Shown here: piece after piece, positions 1 through 4,429 of the stretch
Position numbering within the stretch: position 1 is the stretch's first letter
How the letters are laid out: the number at the start of each line of letters is the position of its first letter
Source: a virus
Taxonomy: Duplodnaviria > Heunggongvirae > Uroviricota > Caudoviricetes
IMG/VR virus record: IMGVR_UViG_2660238209_000015
DNA: 4,429 nucleotides
Direction: 5' to 3' (one strand)
Notes under the pieces: model-generated
Told to the model about the DNA's origin: nothing
The model's database searches: none
What the model saw: only the letters and a program-made list of their open reading frames with translations
Made by a program: the position numbers and the translations under genes

Positions 1-890
1 GTGTTGTACTGGGTGCCGTAGGTATTTTTCCAGTAATACGTCGTGTCACCACAAATCCACGGCACATCTGCAGCACTGCCACCATGGCACTGCGCGTTAA
101 ACACGGAGAGGTCAGCACGAAACTGTGTCAGCATGGCTGTAAACAGCGCAGGTTGCTGTGCGTGGGTGGCGGCGCTCATGTCAAACTCTCCCTGCATCCA
201 GCACACCGCCAGCAACACATTTTTCGGGTTCTTCTGTAATGCAGCTTTGGTGCGCGCAATCAGGTCCTGATATAACGGTTTACCCACACCCCAGCGCGCC
301 GAATCCTGGCTGGCCCCCGTGTCCGCACTGAATGTCCCCTCCGCGCCCTGGGTAAATGCCGAACCACCACGACAGCATGGTACCAGCAGGATCCCCGCGT
401 TATTCGGGATATACGGGAGCAGTTTTTTGGCAATATGTAACCCCTGGCCGACACAGCCGTACTGCCCTTTGCTCAGGTCTGCCTTCGGATGATTCAGCGT
501 ACTCATATCCTGCACATCATGCAGGCAGTGGTCGGCCGGAATAATATCGTTATATCTGCAGGCAGCCCCACCCGGCGTAACTGTACTGCGGCGCGCCAGC
601 TGTTTAATGCGCGGATCCGGAGCATCGTATGAATCCGGAAGCGGAAGCCCTTCCCCGTAAGCCATTGCATTGGACTGCCCGGCCAGTACGATGACGTAGT
701 ACCAATCCGGCTCAGTTGCACCACTGACCACCACATCACCTTCTGCTGCAATCGCCTGCATCAGGGTATAAGGGGTTATGGCCACCGGACTACCAAACGG
801 CTGCCAGCCCTCTTTCAGTTTGTGTGTCAGCTTTTCCGCAAGGTCTGACGGCGACGCCGCCCTGACCACGTCATAGTGTTTAAATGCCAT
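1..890 (-). CDS. nanS: Prophage-type sialate (9-O-acetyl-Neu5Ac) O-acetylesterase, NanS-p-like; N-terminal 296 codons only, gene continues past the left edge of the window
   Basis: Manual minus-strand translation from ATG at 890..888 is open for 296 codons to position 1 (MAFKHYDVVRAASPSDLAEKLTHKLKEGWQPFGSPVAITPYTLMQAIAAEGDVVVSGATEPDWYYVIVLAGQSNAMAYGEG...). It is missing from the supplied ORF track, presumably because it has no in-window stop. A GQSN motif (catalytic-serine block of the SASA/SGNH esterase family) sits ~70 aa from the start, after a short N-terminal domain as in prophage NanS-p proteins. Strong SD GGGGAGGAA lies 4 nt upstream of the ATG. Position downstream of the tRNA cluster matches Stx-phage/lambdoid late-region synteny. 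Family assignment is from recalled motifs, not a search. Confidence 0.8.
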   Translation of the reverse strand, partial: MAFKHYDVVRAASPSDLAEKLTHKLKEGWQPFGSPVAITPYTLMQAIAAEGDVVVSGATEPDWYYVIVLAGQSNAMAYGEGLPLPDSYDAPDPRIKQLARRSTVTPGGAACRYNDIIPADHCLHDVQDMSTLNHPKADLSKGQYGCVGQGLHIAKKLLPYIPNNAGILLVPCCRGGSAFTQGAEGTFSADTGASQDSARWGVGKPLYQDLIARTKAALQKNPKNVLLAVCWMQGEFDMSAATHAQQPALFTAMLTQFRADLSVFNAQCHGGSAADVPWICGDTTYYWKNTYGTQYN

Positions 891-893
891 TAT

Positions 894-901
894 TCCTCCC
901 C
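894..901 (-). promoter_or_regulatory. Shine-Dalgarno site of the nanS-p-like gene
   Basis: Minus-strand sequence GGGGAGGAATA immediately precedes the ATG at 890; GGAGG core with ~4-nt spacer. Confidence 0.6.
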
Positions 902-1069
902 TTTCCGGGATTTTCCTCAACAGTTGCGGGCCACGGTCCGGCCACAAGGAGAATCAAAAGAGGAGAACCGCAGCCCGCAAAACGAAAAAGGCCGCGCAGT
1001 TGCGCAGCCTTATAAACCCTGGTTAAAATCCACACGATAAAAATGACAATGCAAGTATCTCATGCTGTT

Positions 1070-1095
1070 GCCCGAACCCACTCGGGCTTTTTTTT
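1070..1095 (+). terminator. Rho-independent terminator oriented on the plus strand, opposite to the surrounding phage genes
   Basis: Stem gcccga (1070-1075) / tcgggc (1082-1087), 6 bp with 5 G:C, loop acccac, followed directly by T8 (1088-1095). In the minus-strand reading the hairpin is followed by AACAGCAUG, not a U-tract, so it is unidirectional. Confidence 0.55.
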
Positions 1096-1413
1096 GCATG
1101 TAAAAAGGCTCCTGCGATGAGAAGCCTGGATATATGCCTAATCTCTGTATACAGCATGATGCCGGGTGCCTCCCGGTGAATTCTGCAATGACCAGACAGA
1201 ATCCGCAACTTGCCTATACAATACGCAACCAAACATCTGTCATTATGCCCCGCCGCTCAGGGGGATTCATCATGCAGGATTTTTTTAACAAACGCTCAGC
1301 ATGTCAGGCAACAGTCAACTGCCTGAATTGTGAGGCATTTAACATTTCACTGTCCGGTGTCTTTCCTGTAATAAAAAGCCCGCAAAAGAGAGTCAGGGCA
1401 GATAAGTGTGGTG

Positions 1414-1490
1414 TGGTGCGTTGTACTGGATTCGAACCAGTGACCGATTGCTTAGAAGGCAATTGCTCTGTCCGGCTGAGCTAACAACGC
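1414..1490 (-). tRNA. argO: tRNA-Arg (anticodon UCU), argO-like, as carried by lambdoid/Stx prophages
   Basis: Minus-strand sequence GCGTTGT-TA-GCTC-AGCCGGACA-GAGC-A-ATTGC-CTTCTAA-GCAAT-CGGTC-ACTGG-TTCGAAT-CCAGT-ACAACGC-A-CCA folds as a canonical cloverleaf: 7-bp acceptor stem, GGTTCGAATCC T-arm, anticodon loop with TCT at 34-36, encoded CCA. Confidence 0.9.
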
Positions 1491-1503
1491 AGAATACCGA
1501 TAA

Positions 1504-1569
1504 TGGACCGCCACCGGGGACTCCGAATCTCGCACAGGGTGACGTTCTTTCCTGATGAGCTAGTGGCGG
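1504..1569 (-). pseudogene. Degenerate tRNA-like element (possible argN-type remnant) between the two intact tRNAs
   Basis: Minus strand CCGCCAC-TA-GCTC-ATCAGGAAA-GAAC...GAGATTCGGAGTCCCC-GGTGGCGG-T-CCA. It has a perfect 7-bp acceptor stem (CCGCCAC/GTGGCGG), discriminator plus CCA, and a recognisable TAGCTCA D-arm. It is only 66 nt, with a truncated anticodon arm and a non-canonical T-loop (TTCGGAG). It sits 1 nt from the tRNA-Ile2 3' end and 13 nt from the tRNA-Arg 5' end. Confidence 0.3.
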
Positions 1570-1570
1570 T

Positions 1571-1646
1571 TGGTGGCCCTTGCTGGATTTGAACCAGCGA
1601 CCTGGCGATTATGAGTCGCTCGCTCTCACCACTGAGCTAAAGGGCC
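1571..1646 (-). tRNA. ileZ: tRNA with CAU anticodon, most similar in architecture to minor tRNA-Ile2 (ileX/ileZ type, lysidine-modified); reads as Met by anticodon alone
   Basis: Minus strand GGCCCTT-TA-GCTC-AGTGGTGA-GAGC-G-AGCGA-CTCATAA-TCGCC-AGGTC-GCTGG-TTCAAAT-CCAGC-AAGGGCC-A-CCA, 76 nt, canonical cloverleaf, anticodon CAT. The acceptor stem and TTCAAAT T-loop resemble E. coli ileX as I recall it, more than elongator tRNA-Met. Confidence 0.88.
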
Positions 1647-1686
1647 GATTGCTGAATAATAACGACGCATGATTAACTCCGCAATC

Positions 1687-2745
1687 TCATCCGTTACGAA
1701 TGATTAAATCCTGTACTTCCCGCACCGTCTGCTCAAAACGTTCAGTCTCCAGTTCAACGCCAGTTGCACGACGTCCCAGCGCCATCGCTGCTTTCACTGT
1801 CGACCCCGACCCCATGAAGAAATCTGCAACCAGGTCTCCCGGACGACTGCTTGCGCTGATTATCTGCTGCAACATTTCTGCCGTTTTTTCGCACGGATGT
1901 TTCCCTGGATAGTACTGCACCGGTTTATACGTCCACACATCGGTGTACGGCACCTGCACCGTCACACCGAAATACCGCCGCAGATGCTTATATTCACTCT
2001 GCAGCTCCGCATACTGTCGGTTCAGAGAGGCATACGTATCCACCAGCTGGTGGTGGGGCTTTTCCAGTTCACCCCGCTGATGCTTCTCTTCTGCCACCCG
2101 GGCAAACAGTGCCTGTAATTTCAGATAATCGCTTTCGTTCGGCAGCAGCCACTGACCGGCACTGAACCAGTGCGACACCATGTTTTTCTTTCCTGTGGCA
2201 TCTGCAATCTGTTTTGCCGTTATCCCCAGGACAGCGCGCGCATCACGAAAGTAAGCAATCAGCGGGGCCATCACATGCTGTTTCAGTGCCCTACCCTTCG
2301 CCTCATACCCGGCATCTTTCGGACGATACGGCCCCTGATAATGCTCTGCGAACAGAATGCGCTCTGTGGCGGGGAAATACGCCCGCAGGCTTTCCTTGTT
2401 GCACCCGTTCCAGCGTCCGGACGGCTTTGCCCAGATGATATGGTTCAGCACGTTAAACCGCTCACGCATCATGATTTCGGTGTCAGATGCCAGACGATGG
2501 CCACAGAACAGGTAAAGACTTCCGGCAGGTTTCAGCACCCGCCAGAACTGCGCAAGACACTGGTCCAGCCACTTCAGGTAATCTTCATCACCCGCCCACT
2601 GGTTATCCCAGCCCTCGGGTTTCACTTTGAAGTACGGCGGGTCCGTGACTATCAGGTCAACAGAATTTTCGGGTAACGACCGCATAAATTCCAGGCAGTC
2701 GGCGTTGATTAACTCACAACTGGATATTTTTACAGTATTAAGCAT
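1687..2745 (-). CDS. Orphan DNA methyltransferase, beta-class amino-MTase (N6-adenine likely; N6_N4_Mtase family)
   Basis: 352-aa ORF. Motif IV DPPY (…SVDLIVTDPPYF…) is near the N-terminus and motif I FxGxG (…DFFMGSGSTVKAAMALGRRATGVE…) near the C-terminus; this IV-then-I order defines the beta group. DPPY rather than SPPY favours N6-adenine. No restriction endonuclease partner is present in the window. Stop TGA at 1689..1687, 40 nt upstream of the tRNA cluster. Confidence 0.9.
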   Translation of the reverse strand: MLNTVKISSCELINADCLEFMRSLPENSVDLIVTDPPYFKVKPEGWDNQWAGDEDYLKWLDQCLAQFWRVLKPAGSLYLFCGHRLASDTEIMMRERFNVLNHIIWAKPSGRWNGCNKESLRAYFPATERILFAEHYQGPYRPKDAGYEAKGRALKQHVMAPLIAYFRDARAVLGITAKQIADATGKKNMVSHWFSAGQWLLPNESDYLKLQALFARVAEEKHQRGELEKPHHQLVDTYASLNRQYAELQSEYKHLRRYFGVTVQVPYTDVWTYKPVQYYPGKHPCEKTAEMLQQIISASSRPGDLVADFFMGSGSTVKAAMALGRRATGVELETERFEQTVREVQDLIIRNG

Positions 2746-2777
2746 GGATCATTAAGCCTGTCTCTGATAGGCTCATT

Positions 2778-2796
2778 CTGCTTTTGCGCAAAGCAG
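2778..2796. promoter_or_regulatory. Near-perfect 19-bp palindrome 33-51 bp upstream of the methyltransferase start (candidate operator or 5'-leader hairpin)
   Basis: ctgcttt-tgcgc-aaagcag: 7-bp arms (ctgcttt / aaagcag) are exact reverse complements around a 5-nt centre. Confidence 0.35.
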
Positions 2797-2837
2797 TGGG
2801 CCTGAGGTTTGCTTGTGAACCCAACGCATGAGCAGAT

Positions 2838-2868
2838 GGCTGGTGGGTGCCCCTTACACCCACCAGCC
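2838..2868. repeat. 12-bp perfect GC-rich inverted repeat (stable hairpin) in the methyltransferase upstream region
   Basis: ggctggtgggtg (2838-2849) and cacccaccagcc (2857-2868) are exact reverse complements, separated by a 7-nt loop cccctta. No adjacent U-tract on either strand, so it is not a canonical intrinsic terminator. Confidence 0.5.
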
Positions 2869-2881
2869 GCCCATTTACCAC

Positions 2882-2909
2882 AAATAAAAAAGCCTTCAGG
2901 ACTGAAGGC
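2882..2909 (-). terminator. Rho-independent terminator (minus strand) at the 3' end of the small ORF
   Basis: Plus-strand gccttcag-ga-ctgaaggc (2892-2909) is a perfect 8-bp inverted repeat (7 bp effective with a 4-nt loop), preceded on the plus strand by aaataaaaaa (2882-2891), which is a U-rich tract 3' of the hairpin on the minus strand. It overlaps the stop codon of the small ORF. Confidence 0.6.
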
Positions 2910-3093
2910 GTCTGTAACAACCAAACTGATAGTCTGCCAGACCCGCCATAACCAGCTGGGTCAGTATTAACTGGCAGCGTTCGCGTGAAAGGTAAGTATT
3001 CTGCGCAATCTCCCCGACTGTCGCCGGGTCGGTAACGCTTAATTCATTAAACACCACTCTGGCGGTTTCTGTCATATCCTGCTGTTTCAGCAT
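2896..3093 (-). CDS. Small hypothetical protein (65 aa), possibly a winged-helix/HTH DNA-binding protein
   Basis: ATG at 3093..3091 preceded by AAAAGGGAAAAAGAC (GGG-type SD, ~8-nt spacer). Product MLKQQDMTETARVVFNELSVTDPATVGEIAQNTYLSRERCQLILTQLVMAGLADYQFGCYRRLQS has a helix-turn-helix-like pattern reminiscent of small PapI/FaeA-type regulators (from memory, unverified). The ORF track extends this frame to 3216 (GTG start, 106 aa), but that extension runs through AT-rich sequence and abuts terminator T1, so the shorter form is preferred. Confidence 0.4.
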   Translation of the reverse strand: MLKQQDMTETARVVFNELSVTDPATVGEIAQNTYLSRERCQLILTQLVMAGLADYQFGCYRRLQS

Positions 3094-3216
3094 GTCTTTT
3101 TCCCTTTTCCGGTTAACGTGACACACCAATAACTCTTGTCGAAAAAGCCAGCAACCTGAAAGAACGGTATTAATAACCACCAGCGAATTTATTGCGCTGC
3201 TGTATATTACGGACAC

Positions 3217-3238
3217 AAAAAAACCACCTTCCGGTGGC
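3217..3238 (-). terminator. Rho-independent terminator (minus strand) ~95 nt downstream of the Q-like gene; tR'-like candidate
   Basis: Minus strand GCCACC-GGAA-GGTGG followed by TTTTTTT: 5-6 bp G:C-rich stem, GNRA-type tetraloop, then U7 (plus-strand a7 at 3217-3223, stem 3224-3237). Confidence 0.6.
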
Positions 3239-3334
3239 TTCCTTGTGCGAAAAAACTTGCATTTCGCCTCGCGATACAGCTTTGCGAAGCTTACAGGAAT
3301 TCAAGCTGTTTCTGCGTAAAAAAGCAAGCTTTTT

Positions 3335-3877
3335 TTATCGAAATGAATCGTGCATAGGTACATAAAGCATGTGTTCAGCCACGGCTAACCAACCTGCAAT
3401 ACGTTTCTCACATGTGCTGAAACACCATTCCGGGTGAGTACGATTTAAACATTCTGCCATTTTTCTCTTACTCATTCCCCGTCCTTCGTACCTTTGCCGG
3501 AGAATATTGATTAGCCCGGGATATTCCCCAAGCACCTCACTGATAACGCGATCAATAATCAACGCCTCTGTGTCTGTACAATGTGACAACCAGCTCTTCT
3601 GCTTCCCTCTGGTCATATCCCGAAAAAATGCCTCAAGTTCCGGTTTTTCCAGCCCGGATTTCTTCATGCTGCGTAAAACCTCATTAACTGCTGTTTTCGT
3701 CAGCTTTTTCGAAACCAGTAACCGGTTAAACATATTTCCGGATTTACCCCCACCGATATACGACCACCGCCCCCACATCCGTAATTTCCCCTGGATCCAG
3801 ACTGCTTCCAGCGTGTTCAGGCGTAAATGTTCGCCGCTTTTGCCTGTAATTTCCGGATATATCATATTTACGCTCAC
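3335..3877 (-). CDS. Putative late-gene antiterminator (Q-like) by synteny; function not confirmed
   Basis: 180-aa ORF with GTG start at 3877 (the first ATG is at 3865, giving 176 aa); stop TAA at 3337..3335. It lies immediately downstream of the rusA 3' fragment with a GTGA stop/start overlap, and is followed within ~100 nt by an intrinsic terminator, then the methyltransferase, tRNAs and nanS-p. This is the position Q occupies in lambdoid phages of the 82/DLP12 type (rusA-Q-pR'-tR'-late genes). An LRMWGRW segment loosely recalls a W-G-x-W segment in Q proteins as I remember them. No search was performed. Confidence 0.5.
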   Translation of the reverse strand: MSVNMIYPEITGKSGEHLRLNTLEAVWIQGKLRMWGRWSYIGGGKSGNMFNRLLVSKKLTKTAVNEVLRSMKKSGLEKPELEAFFRDMTRGKQKSWLSHCTDTEALIIDRVISEVLGEYPGLINILRQRYEGRGMSKRKMAECLNRTHPEWCFSTCEKRIAGWLAVAEHMLYVPMHDSFR

Positions 3878-4017
3878 TCACTCTCAATTTTGTAAATCTT
3901 CACGCCCAGCCGTCCCCCAGGAACGCGCTGACCGCGCACAATATTGATTTCATCAAACTGCTCGTCGTCTATGAGAAGTCCGGCATGCGTCAGCGCATCC
4001 AGTGGTGCTTTCAGGAT
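3874..4017 (-). pseudogene. rusA: 3' fragment (47 codons plus stop) of rusA, Holliday-junction resolvase, truncated at its 5' side by the IS insertion
   Basis: The minus-strand frame is open from the IS boundary (4017) to TGA at 3876..3874: ILKAPLDALTHAGLLIDDEQFDEINIVRGQRVPGGRLGVKIYKIESE*. This aligns with the C-terminus of E. coli RusA as recalled (…FDALTKAGFWLDDAQVVDY…KGGRLELTITEMGNE), with conserved DALT.AG, LDD.Q and GGRL. No start codon or N-terminal portion on this side of the IS. Confidence 0.65.
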
Positions 4018-4071
4018 TGAACCGCCCCGGAAATCCTGGAGACTAAACTCCCTGAGAAAGAGGTAAACAGG

Positions 4072-4398
4072 ATGACTAAAAATACTCGTTTTTCCCCCGA
4101 AGTCCGTCAGCGGGCGATTCGTATGGTTCTGGAAAGTCAGGATGAATATGACTCACAGTGGGCGGCAATTTGTTCCATTGCCCCAAAGATTGGCTGTACG
4201 CCGGAGACTCTGCGTGTCTGGGTTCGCCAGCATGAGCGGGATACCGGGGGCGGTGATGGTGGGCTCACCAGCGCTGAACGTCAGCGTCTGAAAGAGCTGG
4301 AACGTGAAAATCGTGAACTGCGCCGCAGTAACGATATCCTTCGCCAGGCTTCCGCTTATTTTGCGAAGGCGGAGTTCGACCGCCTCTGGAAAAAATGA
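4072..4398 (+). CDS. IS3-family transposase OrfA (HTH DNA-binding subunit), IS629-like
   Basis: 108-aa [111 protein letters not shown]; N-terminal HTH plus leucine-zipper-like C-terminus typical of IS3 OrfA. SD GAGGTAAACAGG upstream of the ATG at 4072. Confidence 0.9.
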
Positions 4399-4429
4399 TG
4401 CCACTGCTGGATAAGCTGCGTGAGCAGTA
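4395..4429 (+). CDS. IS3-family transposase OrfB (DDE catalytic subunit), first 11 codons only; -1 frame relative to orfA
   Basis: ATGATGCCACTGCTGGATAAGCTGCGTGAGCAG gives [11 protein letters not shown], overlapping the orfA stop. The A6 run (4390-4395) at the overlap is a plausible -1 frameshift site for an OrfAB fusion. Confidence 0.7.

Follow-up and report, generated by a model that had tools for sequence, protein, structure and literature searches.

The window analysed in this work, a stretch of 4,429 nucleotides from a virus of the Caudoviricetes (IMG/VR record IMGVR_UViG_2660238209_000015), contains at 3336-3217 of its minus strand what is probably the late regulatory cassette pR'-qut-tR' (late promoter, Q-utilisation site and terminator) of an Escherichia coli O157:H7/O111 lambdoid prophage, served by the DUF1133 protein encoded upstream. 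The assignment was supported by the homology of this protein to the antiterminator Q of phage 21 (Q21), by a conserved layout of cis elements strictly linked to DUF1133 genes, by the co-variation of a recognition helix in the protein with a short DNA subsite, and by an intrinsic terminator. The window was 100% identical over 2880-3900 to lambdoid prophages of E. coli O157:H7 and O111:H8, which it matched at 99.1% over 1-4017. All its relevant genes lie on the minus strand, for which the elements of the cassette are given below together with the gene for the protein and its helix.

3335..3865, minus strand: Q-like antiterminator gene, from the list of open reading frames (ORFs), Pfam and the start chosen by the prokaryotic genome annotation pipeline (PGAP) in an identical prophage (L003)
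3418-3398, minus strand: predicted DNA-recognition helix S-T-C-E-K-R-I, aligned to A124-V130 of Q21
3328..3336, minus strand: A-tract AAAAAAAGC (about -44..-36), possibly a proximal subsite resembling an UP element
3322..3327, minus strand: putative -35 hexamer TTGCTT, at the position equal to that of TTGACA in phage 21 pR'
3314..3321, minus strand: predicted Q-binding subsite TTTTACGC (8 bp; core TTACGC, 3319-3314), from its position and co-variation
3305..3313, minus strand: constant block AGAAACAGC, with its last three bases at the extended -10 "TGn" position
3299..3304, minus strand: putative -10 hexamer TTGAAT, 17 bp from the -35 and non-canonical, with T instead of A at -11
3288..3293, minus strand: predicted sigma-dependent pause element (SDPE) TAAGCT, -10-like, at about -1..+5 and identical to the annotated SDPE of phage 21
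3266..3290, minus strand: 5' RNA hairpin GCUUCGC / GCGAGGC (7 bp, 11-nt loop) at +3..+27, predicted by folding
3246..3265, minus strand: variable linker GAAAUGCAAGUUUUUUCGCA with a U6 run, unpaired in the centroid fold
3217..3245, minus strand: intrinsic terminator tR', with a 13-bp stem, a GGAA loop and then U7

The Q-like gene codes for 176 amino acids from the ATG selected by PGAP, or for 180 in the mechanical ORF starting at the GTG at 3877, and PGAP labels the identical protein "DUF1133 family protein". A Pfam scan (E <= 0.01) returned only DUF1133 (PF06576; E = 1.1e-110, residues 5-180 on profile positions 1-176 of 176, that is, full length) and Phage_antitermQ (PF06530; 1.4e-8, 35.1 bits vs. 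a cut-off of 26), lambda-type Q (PF03589) and phage 82-type Q being unmatched. The protein matched phage 21 Q by BLASTP (1e-5), and a profile of 22 homologues aligned by hhalign with Q21 residues 6-151, its full length, with 96% probability (E = 4e-9); when the same profile was compared with the sequences in PDB, the Q21 entries (6p18, 6jnx) ranked first (E = 1.3e-6). The AlphaFold model displayed a Q21-like fold, consisting of a helix-turn-helix core resembling sigma region 4 plus an N-terminal helix, and its best 12 Foldseek matches in PDB were all Q21 chains (E from 1e-4, TM 0.55-0.70; next match at E > 1.7); the predicted local confidence (pLDDT) of the model was 70-94 in the C-terminal half, confident residues being those at about 100-176 only. 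The earlier note on this DNA had doubted its own assignment of the gene to the Q antiterminators, which the profile searches (PF06530, hhalign and the PDB profile) and the fold search have now confirmed. As judged from these comparisons, the window protein appears to be a DUF1133 member whose homology to phage 21 Q is distant yet clear, and which is a diverged member of the Q21 family. A full-text literature search for "DUF1133" retrieved no paper.

The position of the gene is consistent with this role. In the intact identical prophage L003 the order is rusA, "DUF1133 family protein", small ORF, DNA methyltransferase, tRNA-Ile, tRNA-Arg, nanS-p-type esterase, holin and lysozyme, which places the Q gene at the end of the early-right (nin/rusA) region and ahead of the lysis genes. 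The early-right region ends and the late region starts at this locus, where one would expect a Q gene together with its target site.

The layout of the cassette was conserved among relatives. Thirty-one loci were picked by protein similarity alone and their downstream DNA was aligned only on the hexamer TAnGCT; a common frame appeared in every intact locus, consisting of TTGnnn, 17 bp, TTnAAT, 5 bp, TAnGCT and then a terminator. In the loci termed class B the frame and the 3' end of the Q gene overlap; in those termed class A, which include the window, the frame is intergenic; in three loci (L002, L010 and L014) it is displaced from Q by inserts of 580-1400 bp, yet intact. In 27/27 loci aligned on the downstream hexamer, TTG stood exactly 17 bp upstream of the hexamer in the -10 position, and this spacing was kept in all three situations. 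The composite pattern TTG-N20-T[TG]NA[AC]T-N5-TAN[GC]CT occurred once in the window (3327-3288; 0/200 shuffles). Searched in both strands of the 31 protein-selected loci (211 kb), it had exactly one occurrence in 24 of them, located downstream of Q on the Q strand; L018 and L022 carried one-base variants of it, and the remaining loci were truncated or interrupted by insertion sequences (IS). Searching with a 26-mer of the transcribed region brought up at least 120 viral contigs. When loci found only through this 26-mer were included, 147 of 149 module instances had a DUF1133 gene on the same strand at most 2.5 kb upstream, the other two being located at contig starts. A search of the phage collection with the DNA of the module gave only seven records, no Gifsy phage among them, and the region queried was matched in 2,539 of the 5,426 complete E. 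coli genomes, as many as eight times in one genome.

The promoter is most likely TTGCTT-17-TTGAAT, to judge by this frame, and would be weak, non-canonical and of the extended -10 type. A consensus sigma-70 scanner, which needs A at position 2 of the -10, found no promoter in 3217-3334, in agreement with the earlier note, where no canonical promoter had been seen. The A/T-rich hairpin over the Q stop and the two hexamers pointed out there, TTGAAT and TGTATC, are indeed present (3336-3319, 3304-3299 and 3277-3272, respectively), but the roles given to the hexamers were mistaken: TTGAAT occupies the -10 position, and the likely -35, TTGCTT, lies inside the hairpin, a palindrome (AAAAAAGC-TT-GCTTTTTT) made of the A-tract plus the T-run following the -35. 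TTGAAT as -35 with TGTATC as -10 was rejected, the spacing being 20 bp and TGTATC falling inside the conserved transcribed hairpin. We took TTGAAT as the promoter -10 and TAAGCT as the pause element because TTG is invariant at 17 bp, TGC precedes TTnAAT in most modules, the 5 bp between the two hexamers vary freely as in a discriminator, the hexamer at the -10 position is TATCTT in Rac-SA53 (TTGATT-17-TATCTT-5-TAAGAT, with the canonical A at -11), nothing like a -35 precedes TAAGCT, and TAAGCT is the pause element of phage 21. Positions 1, 2 and 6 of the pause hexamer were T, A and T in every module. The start site is predicted at A3292 because it is the seventh base after the -10 and a purine following a pyrimidine.

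The guess of the earlier note that the promoter might be of an extended -10 or Q-binding type held for the family and only by half for the window. All 87 unique modules had G at -14; 79 of them had T at -15 and 80 had C at -13, and the search pattern of the module imposed no base at any of the three positions; the window presents AGC at this position vs. TGC in most relatives, its A at -15 leaving half of the TG motif. The constant block was otherwise unchanged across the Q specificity classes. Positions -45..-40 were A-rich across the same 87 modules, a sample mostly of class A, and class B lacked the tract. T at the second position of a -10 can function, as in the E. coli trp promoter (-10 TTAACT).

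The 8-bp subsite between -35 and -10 is the predicted Q-binding element (QBE), which would be read by the recognition helix of the helix-turn-helix. From the start of its core to the pause hexamer there are 26 bp, as there are from the upstream QBE subsite TGAGCA to the SDPE in phage 21, and in class B the 8 bp following the -35 are A[AGT]TGAGC[AC], that is, the phage 21 subsite motif. For 96 unique protein/module pairs, the seven residues aligned to the Q21 helix A124-V130 were compared with the DNA, and the following pairs were obtained.

Helix xTCRRR: site TGAGC[AC], TGATCA or TGAACC
Helix STCEKR (window): site TTACG[CT]
Helix RTCCSR: site TTGCAC
Helix ATCRNR: site TTAGCC
Helix RTCESR: site TTGCGC
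Helix RTCKNR: site TTGCCC
Helix PTCRNR: site TTATCC
Helix KTCRNR: site TT[AG]CCA
Helix RTCERR: site TGACGT

The correspondence between subsite core and helix was almost one to one, with a single exception among the 96 pairs, and the normalised mutual information of helix and subsite (0.90 and 0.80) was the highest among the DNA segments tested. Proteins with the same preceding helix but a different recognition helix had different subsites, and the pairing was kept where Q and the module were more than 800 bp apart. Rac-SA53, which was left out of the derivation, combined STCEKR with TTACGC, so that the pairing holds there as well. Phage 21 Q itself has the helix ATCRRE with TGAGCA (PMC6606751), which fits the pairing of TCRRR-type helices with TGAGC sites in the relatives. 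The second block of 8-9 bp (AnAAAC/GTGC) was constant, neither repeating the first subsite nor varying with helix type. In class B (L012, L015-L031) a second copy of TGAGCA was located at +24..+29 of the predicted transcript, in the 3' arm of the 5' hairpin; this transcribed copy was unchanged where the upstream subsite was TTGCGC.

The terminator that the earlier note had placed after the Q-like gene was found about 90 nt beyond the stop codon of that gene (TAA at 3337-3335; terminator at 3245-3217). Its core comprises GCCACC (3238-3233), the loop GGAA, GGTGG (3228-3224) and T7 (3223-3217); in the fold of the predicted transcript the stem extended to 13 bp, with -28.7 kcal/mol, z = -3.6 and 0/200 shuffles as stable, and the fold of the 136-nt region gave z = -5.1. 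The consensus scanner listed this stem on the plus strand only, the T-run being on the minus strand. With its 3' end predicted at 3221-3217, the RNA would be about 72-76 nt long. Intrinsic terminators of diverse sequence, ending at +60..+89, were found in 83 of 85 unique related modules. One of the two modules without a detectable terminator was that of a Salmonella locus (L010, 2950-3000), in which the terminator seems disrupted, ACCCGCCATCGTG being followed by unrelated sequence with no T-run. In Rfam, no family matched the predicted short RNA (E <= 1 for the whole window; E <= 10 on 3190-3350), apart from a faint STnc50 match (17.7 bits, E = 0.93) that was not relied on.

The segment with the 5' hairpin (-10.6 kcal/mol) pairs the RNA copy of the pause hexamer. 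Hairpins of unrelated sequence occurred at the same place in class B and in Rac-SA53, and the hairpin was weak or absent in five minor variants, so that it is common, not universal; across classes it was judged by per-sequence folds, MAFFT having misaligned its arms between class A and class B. Our best guess for its role is that of a stabilising 5' stem-loop.

The genome record of phage 21 annotates pR' with a -35 (TTGACA), an upstream QBE subsite (ATTGAGCA), a downstream one (AATGAGCA), a -10 (AACACT), the +1, the SDPE (TAAGCTG) and a terminator. Comparison with this region, which the earlier note had proposed, revealed the same order of elements, an identical SDPE hexamer and the equal 26-bp distance mentioned above, in addition to the full-length homology of the proteins (PF06530; 6P18, 6P19, 6JNX) and a helix motif x-T-C-x-x-R at the equal place. 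The lambdoid arrangement suspected there, with a late promoter, a short terminated transcript and a Q-utilisation site, is homologous in layout to phage 21 pR'. In both systems the SDPE as copied into RNA takes part in a stem, that of the 5' hairpin in the window and the foot of the terminator stem in phage 21 (by eye). The -35 and -10 of the window are 2 bp nearer to the SDPE, so that this element would lie at -1..+5 vs. +2..+7 in phage 21, three bases earlier, and the -10 is AACACT in phage 21 vs. TTnAAT here. In addition, the terminator stem of phage 21 starts at +4, whereas in the window a separate 5' hairpin precedes the terminator.

The logic is also that of the Q, pR' and 6S RNA of lambda: a late promoter fires constitutively, a QBE is placed between its -35 and -10, and the RNA is short, ending at a terminator that is read through when Q is present (textbook knowledge and PMC6606751). 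The Q of lambda, in contrast, belongs to an unrelated family (PF03589), lambda needs an extra -35-like element, its -10-like pause element is at +1..+6, one base later than here, and its 6S RNA has about 194 nt vs. about 75 nt predicted for the window. The small RNA (sRNA) StxS of Shiga toxin (Stx) phages is similarly a short RNA, constitutive in lysogens, from an antiterminated late promoter (PMC7547250), and shows that by-products of this kind can act as Hfq-dependent sRNAs (PMC7547250); it differs in its Q allele and sequence and in being processed from a 258-nt transcript.

Experimental data on a relative come from the Salmonella prophage Gifsy-1, where AntQ sits directly upstream of isrK and, when overexpressed, disturbs termination in vivo, its toxicity being rescued by Rho (PMC4825925). 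A Salmonella DUF1133 homologue with 76% identity lies directly upstream of isrK, and from this synteny we infer that AntQ is a DUF1133 protein; AntQ is the sole member of the subfamily with experimental anti-termination evidence (PMC4825925). In strain LT2 isrK is located at 2762867-2762791 and isrJ at 2762030-2761957 (Padalon-Brauch et al., PMC2330248); IsrJ has 74 nt, with its 5' end 837 nt after that of isrK, and was expressed from a plasmid by its own promoter (PMC2330248). In four viral contigs carrying isrK, the predicted +1 of the module lay 841-842 nt past the start of the Rfam isrK match, and in a fifth (L059) 866 nt past it; the U-tract was found 74-78 nt past the predicted +1 in the isrK-carrying loci, and in L088 from about 70 nt to about +81, a stretch within which an RNA of 74-78 nt would have its 3' end. 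The position and length of IsrJ agree with those of the predicted short pR' transcript, and the published coordinates indicate that IsrJ is very probably the terminated pR' transcript of this type of cassette. If so, the published IsrJ data would be indirect evidence from experiment for a promoter that is active in lysogens and starts at the position corresponding to A3292, not at the downstream one considered below.

Loci of the Gifsy-1 type differ from the window in having the c4/isrK-orf45-anrP antirepressor module, about 840 bp, between Q and the promoter module, which are adjacent in the window, and in their specificity (RTCCSR with TTGCAC or ATCRNR with TTAGCC vs. STCEKR with TTACGC). 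A moron was present between the Q stop and the -35 in many relatives (L010, 2055-2890; L088, 8398-9237; L002, 1238-2485; L014, 2055-2635), most commonly a P1-like c4/isrK-orf45-antirepressor module of 836-890 bp, and the promoter module and the helix/subsite pairing were unbroken in them. In Rac-SA53 (L156, 1746-2200) the same cassette was found, its hexamers being the variants TATCTT and TAAGAT; about 350 bp past its terminator begin the genes eplB and eplA of a pertussis-like toxin, which the Q type of this cassette probably controls.

That the promoter of the cassette is active, where exactly it starts, and that the polymerase pauses and is antiterminated are predictions from sequence, which would combine in the following way. 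The sigma-70 RNA polymerase would start at about A3292 from the weak promoter TTGCTT-17-TTGAAT, and about 11-12 nt further on sigma region 2 would rebind TAAGCT on the non-template strand, with a pause probably at about +15/+16. Without Q, transcription would terminate at tR', yielding the RNA of 72-76 nt with its 5' hairpin and U-rich linker. Q, made from the early rightward transcript, would bind TTACGC through the helix STCEKRI and load onto the paused polymerase, which would become resistant to the terminator and then transcribe the small ORF, the DNA methylase, the tRNAs, nanS-p and the lysis genes. This mechanism is no departure from known Q-dependent antitermination, the cassette being of the Q21 type in a diverged Q subfamily; the traits of its own are the predicted non-canonical promoter of the extended -10 type, the single co-varying subsite, the pause element over the +1 and the extra 5' hairpin.

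Several observations weigh against this interpretation. All modules of classes A and B have T at -11, and in the window the TG motif is moreover without its T; because of these two departures the core promoter matches the consensus poorly (3/6 and 4/6) and escapes the scanner. The direct repeat that forms the second QBE subsite of phage 21 was not recognisable in the window, the 8-bp-shifted position matching the first subsite at 2/6 bases (by eye); the two-subsite architecture of phage 21 is not reproduced because the following 9 bp, where the constant block with the extended -10 TG position stands instead, are neither a repeat nor dependent on the helix. The window protein is only about 20% identical to Q21; about 30 residues are inserted after its WGxWxY, and the 13-residue minor-groove loop that carries R113 in Q21 is missing, so that the details of Q loading may differ from those of Q21; the AlphaFold model had a mean pLDDT of 64, with low confidence in its N-terminal half. 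Helix and subsite are 60-100 bp apart in most loci, so that part of the co-variation could be co-inheritance, and physical linkage surely contributes to the pattern; the subsite nonetheless is the predicted QBE because of the deep agreement with the Q21 pairing. Finally, the identity of IsrJ was derived wholly from published coordinates, and Rfam isrJ was matched in none of the searches, those of isrK-carrying loci included.

We considered it unlikely that TAAGCT (3293-3288) is the true -10 of the late promoter, with a start near A3281, TTG...TTGAAT serving only for protein binding and the pause lying further down (e.g., at AAAGCT or TATCGC). TAnGCT does have A at position 2 and T at position 6 in every module, A at position 2 being absent from TTnAAT, and many class B modules present TGn right before TAGGCT (e.g., TGaTAGGCT). 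This TGn is, however, missing in the window and in several relatives, and no -35-like hexamer stands 16-18 bp upstream of TAAGCT (CGCAGA in the window, GCAAGA/GCAGCG in class B); past TAnGCT, no -10-like element was found at a position common to class A and class B. The invariant TTG of the -35, its 17-bp spacing and the conserved TGn favour TTnAAT as the -10, and the 5' end of IsrJ fits the A3281 start within about 15 nt vs. about 4 nt for the upstream one. A promoter role of TAAGCT is disfavoured mainly because it lacks a -35 and is identical to, and as far from the QBE as, the pause element that experiments have defined in phage 21.

The weakness of the core promoter could also mean that the Q-like protein is mainly a promoter-bound activator, acting in the manner of sigma region 4 beside a weak -35, with the terminator marking the end of a small RNA gene; the subsite abuts the -35, and the fold of Q21 does resemble sigma region 4 (bioRxiv 10.1101/651190). 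An activator alone, however, would not express the late genes, from which the promoter is separated by a terminator in 83 of the 85 unique modules, nor would it need a -10-like pause hexamer fixed at 26 bp from the subsite as in phage 21; since, in addition, the homologue AntQ disturbs termination with a toxicity that Rho rescues (PMC4825925), we regard this explanation as very unlikely. Still less credible, to the point of being most improbable, is that the block holds no promoter at all, the terminator ending the early rightward (Q) transcript and the RNA being a 3'-UTR-derived or independent sRNA unrelated to Q. No canonical promoter was detected, and such prophage regions are rich in sRNAs, STnc100 and AgvB being in the same window; yet the promoter geometry (TTG, 17 bp, TGn, hexamer) is kept 580-1400 bp from Q and past other terminators, the variable 8-mer follows the recognition helix of Q, the elements match those of phage 21 pR' one by one, and IsrJ was expressed from a plasmid by its own promoter (PMC2330248).

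With respect to its surroundings, the late region of the window (1-3216) has the gene order of Stx phages and lacks toxin genes. The coding features downstream of the cassette are as follows.

3093-2896, minus strand: small TrmB-like ORF
2745-1687, minus strand: DNA methylase
890-1, minus strand: nanS-p esterase

A tRNA pair typical of Stx-phage late regions lies within 1414-1646 of the minus strand, consisting of tRNA-Arg(UCU) and a CAU tRNA, named Met by ARAGORN and Ile by PGAP in the identical prophage. The sRNA gene STnc100 (1304-1096, minus strand, 175 bits) was found back to back with an AgvB-like anti-GcvB sponge (1035-1094, plus strand, 56.6 bits, barely over the gathering score). A second intrinsic terminator, GCCTTCAGTCCTGAAGGC followed by T6, is located at 2892-2909 of the minus strand, directly 3' of the small ORF, and further ones at 1127-1106 and 1011-988; a Q-modified polymerase would need to pass all of them. 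A mosaic recombination joint falls between 3263 and 3225, in the linker or the terminator: the homology of Q-side relatives, comprising Q and the promoter block, runs down to 3263, and from about 3225 downward the window is 92-97% identical to late regions of Stx2-converting phages. At the other end, an IS3-family element begins at 4018 (4018-4429) and truncates rusA, the homology to the intact prophage stopping at 4017; it carries orfA at 4072-4398 of the plus strand (HTH_Tnp_1) and an ALIL frameshift pseudoknot (Rfam match at 4353-4429).

A wider reading, in which a subsite/helix code is joined to a trans-acting sRNA of about 75 nt like IsrJ or StxS and to a promoter biased to stationary phase or stress, appears rather doubtful as a whole. 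If it were true, the code, with at least nine helix/site pairs, would decide which co-resident prophages trans-activate each other's late and toxin operons, a matter concerning enterohaemorrhagic E. coli, Salmonella and toxin phages such as Rac-SA53; the transcript with its 5' hairpin, U-rich linker and terminator would be a trans-acting sRNA and not a by-product, and the odd promoter (T at -11, C at -13, TG) would favour its synthesis in stationary phase or stress. The accepted picture of Q-dependent antitermination is left unchanged by the cassette itself, which offers a concrete explanation for the Salmonella sRNA IsrJ and natural helix/subsite variants that can be used for testing how Q-family proteins read DNA. 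The very common protein still bears the RefSeq name "DUF1133 family protein", and its assignment to the Q21 type permits a proper annotation of prophages and a prediction of the late operons that each Q allele is able to turn on, those of nanS-p here and of the pertussis-like toxin genes in Rac-SA53.

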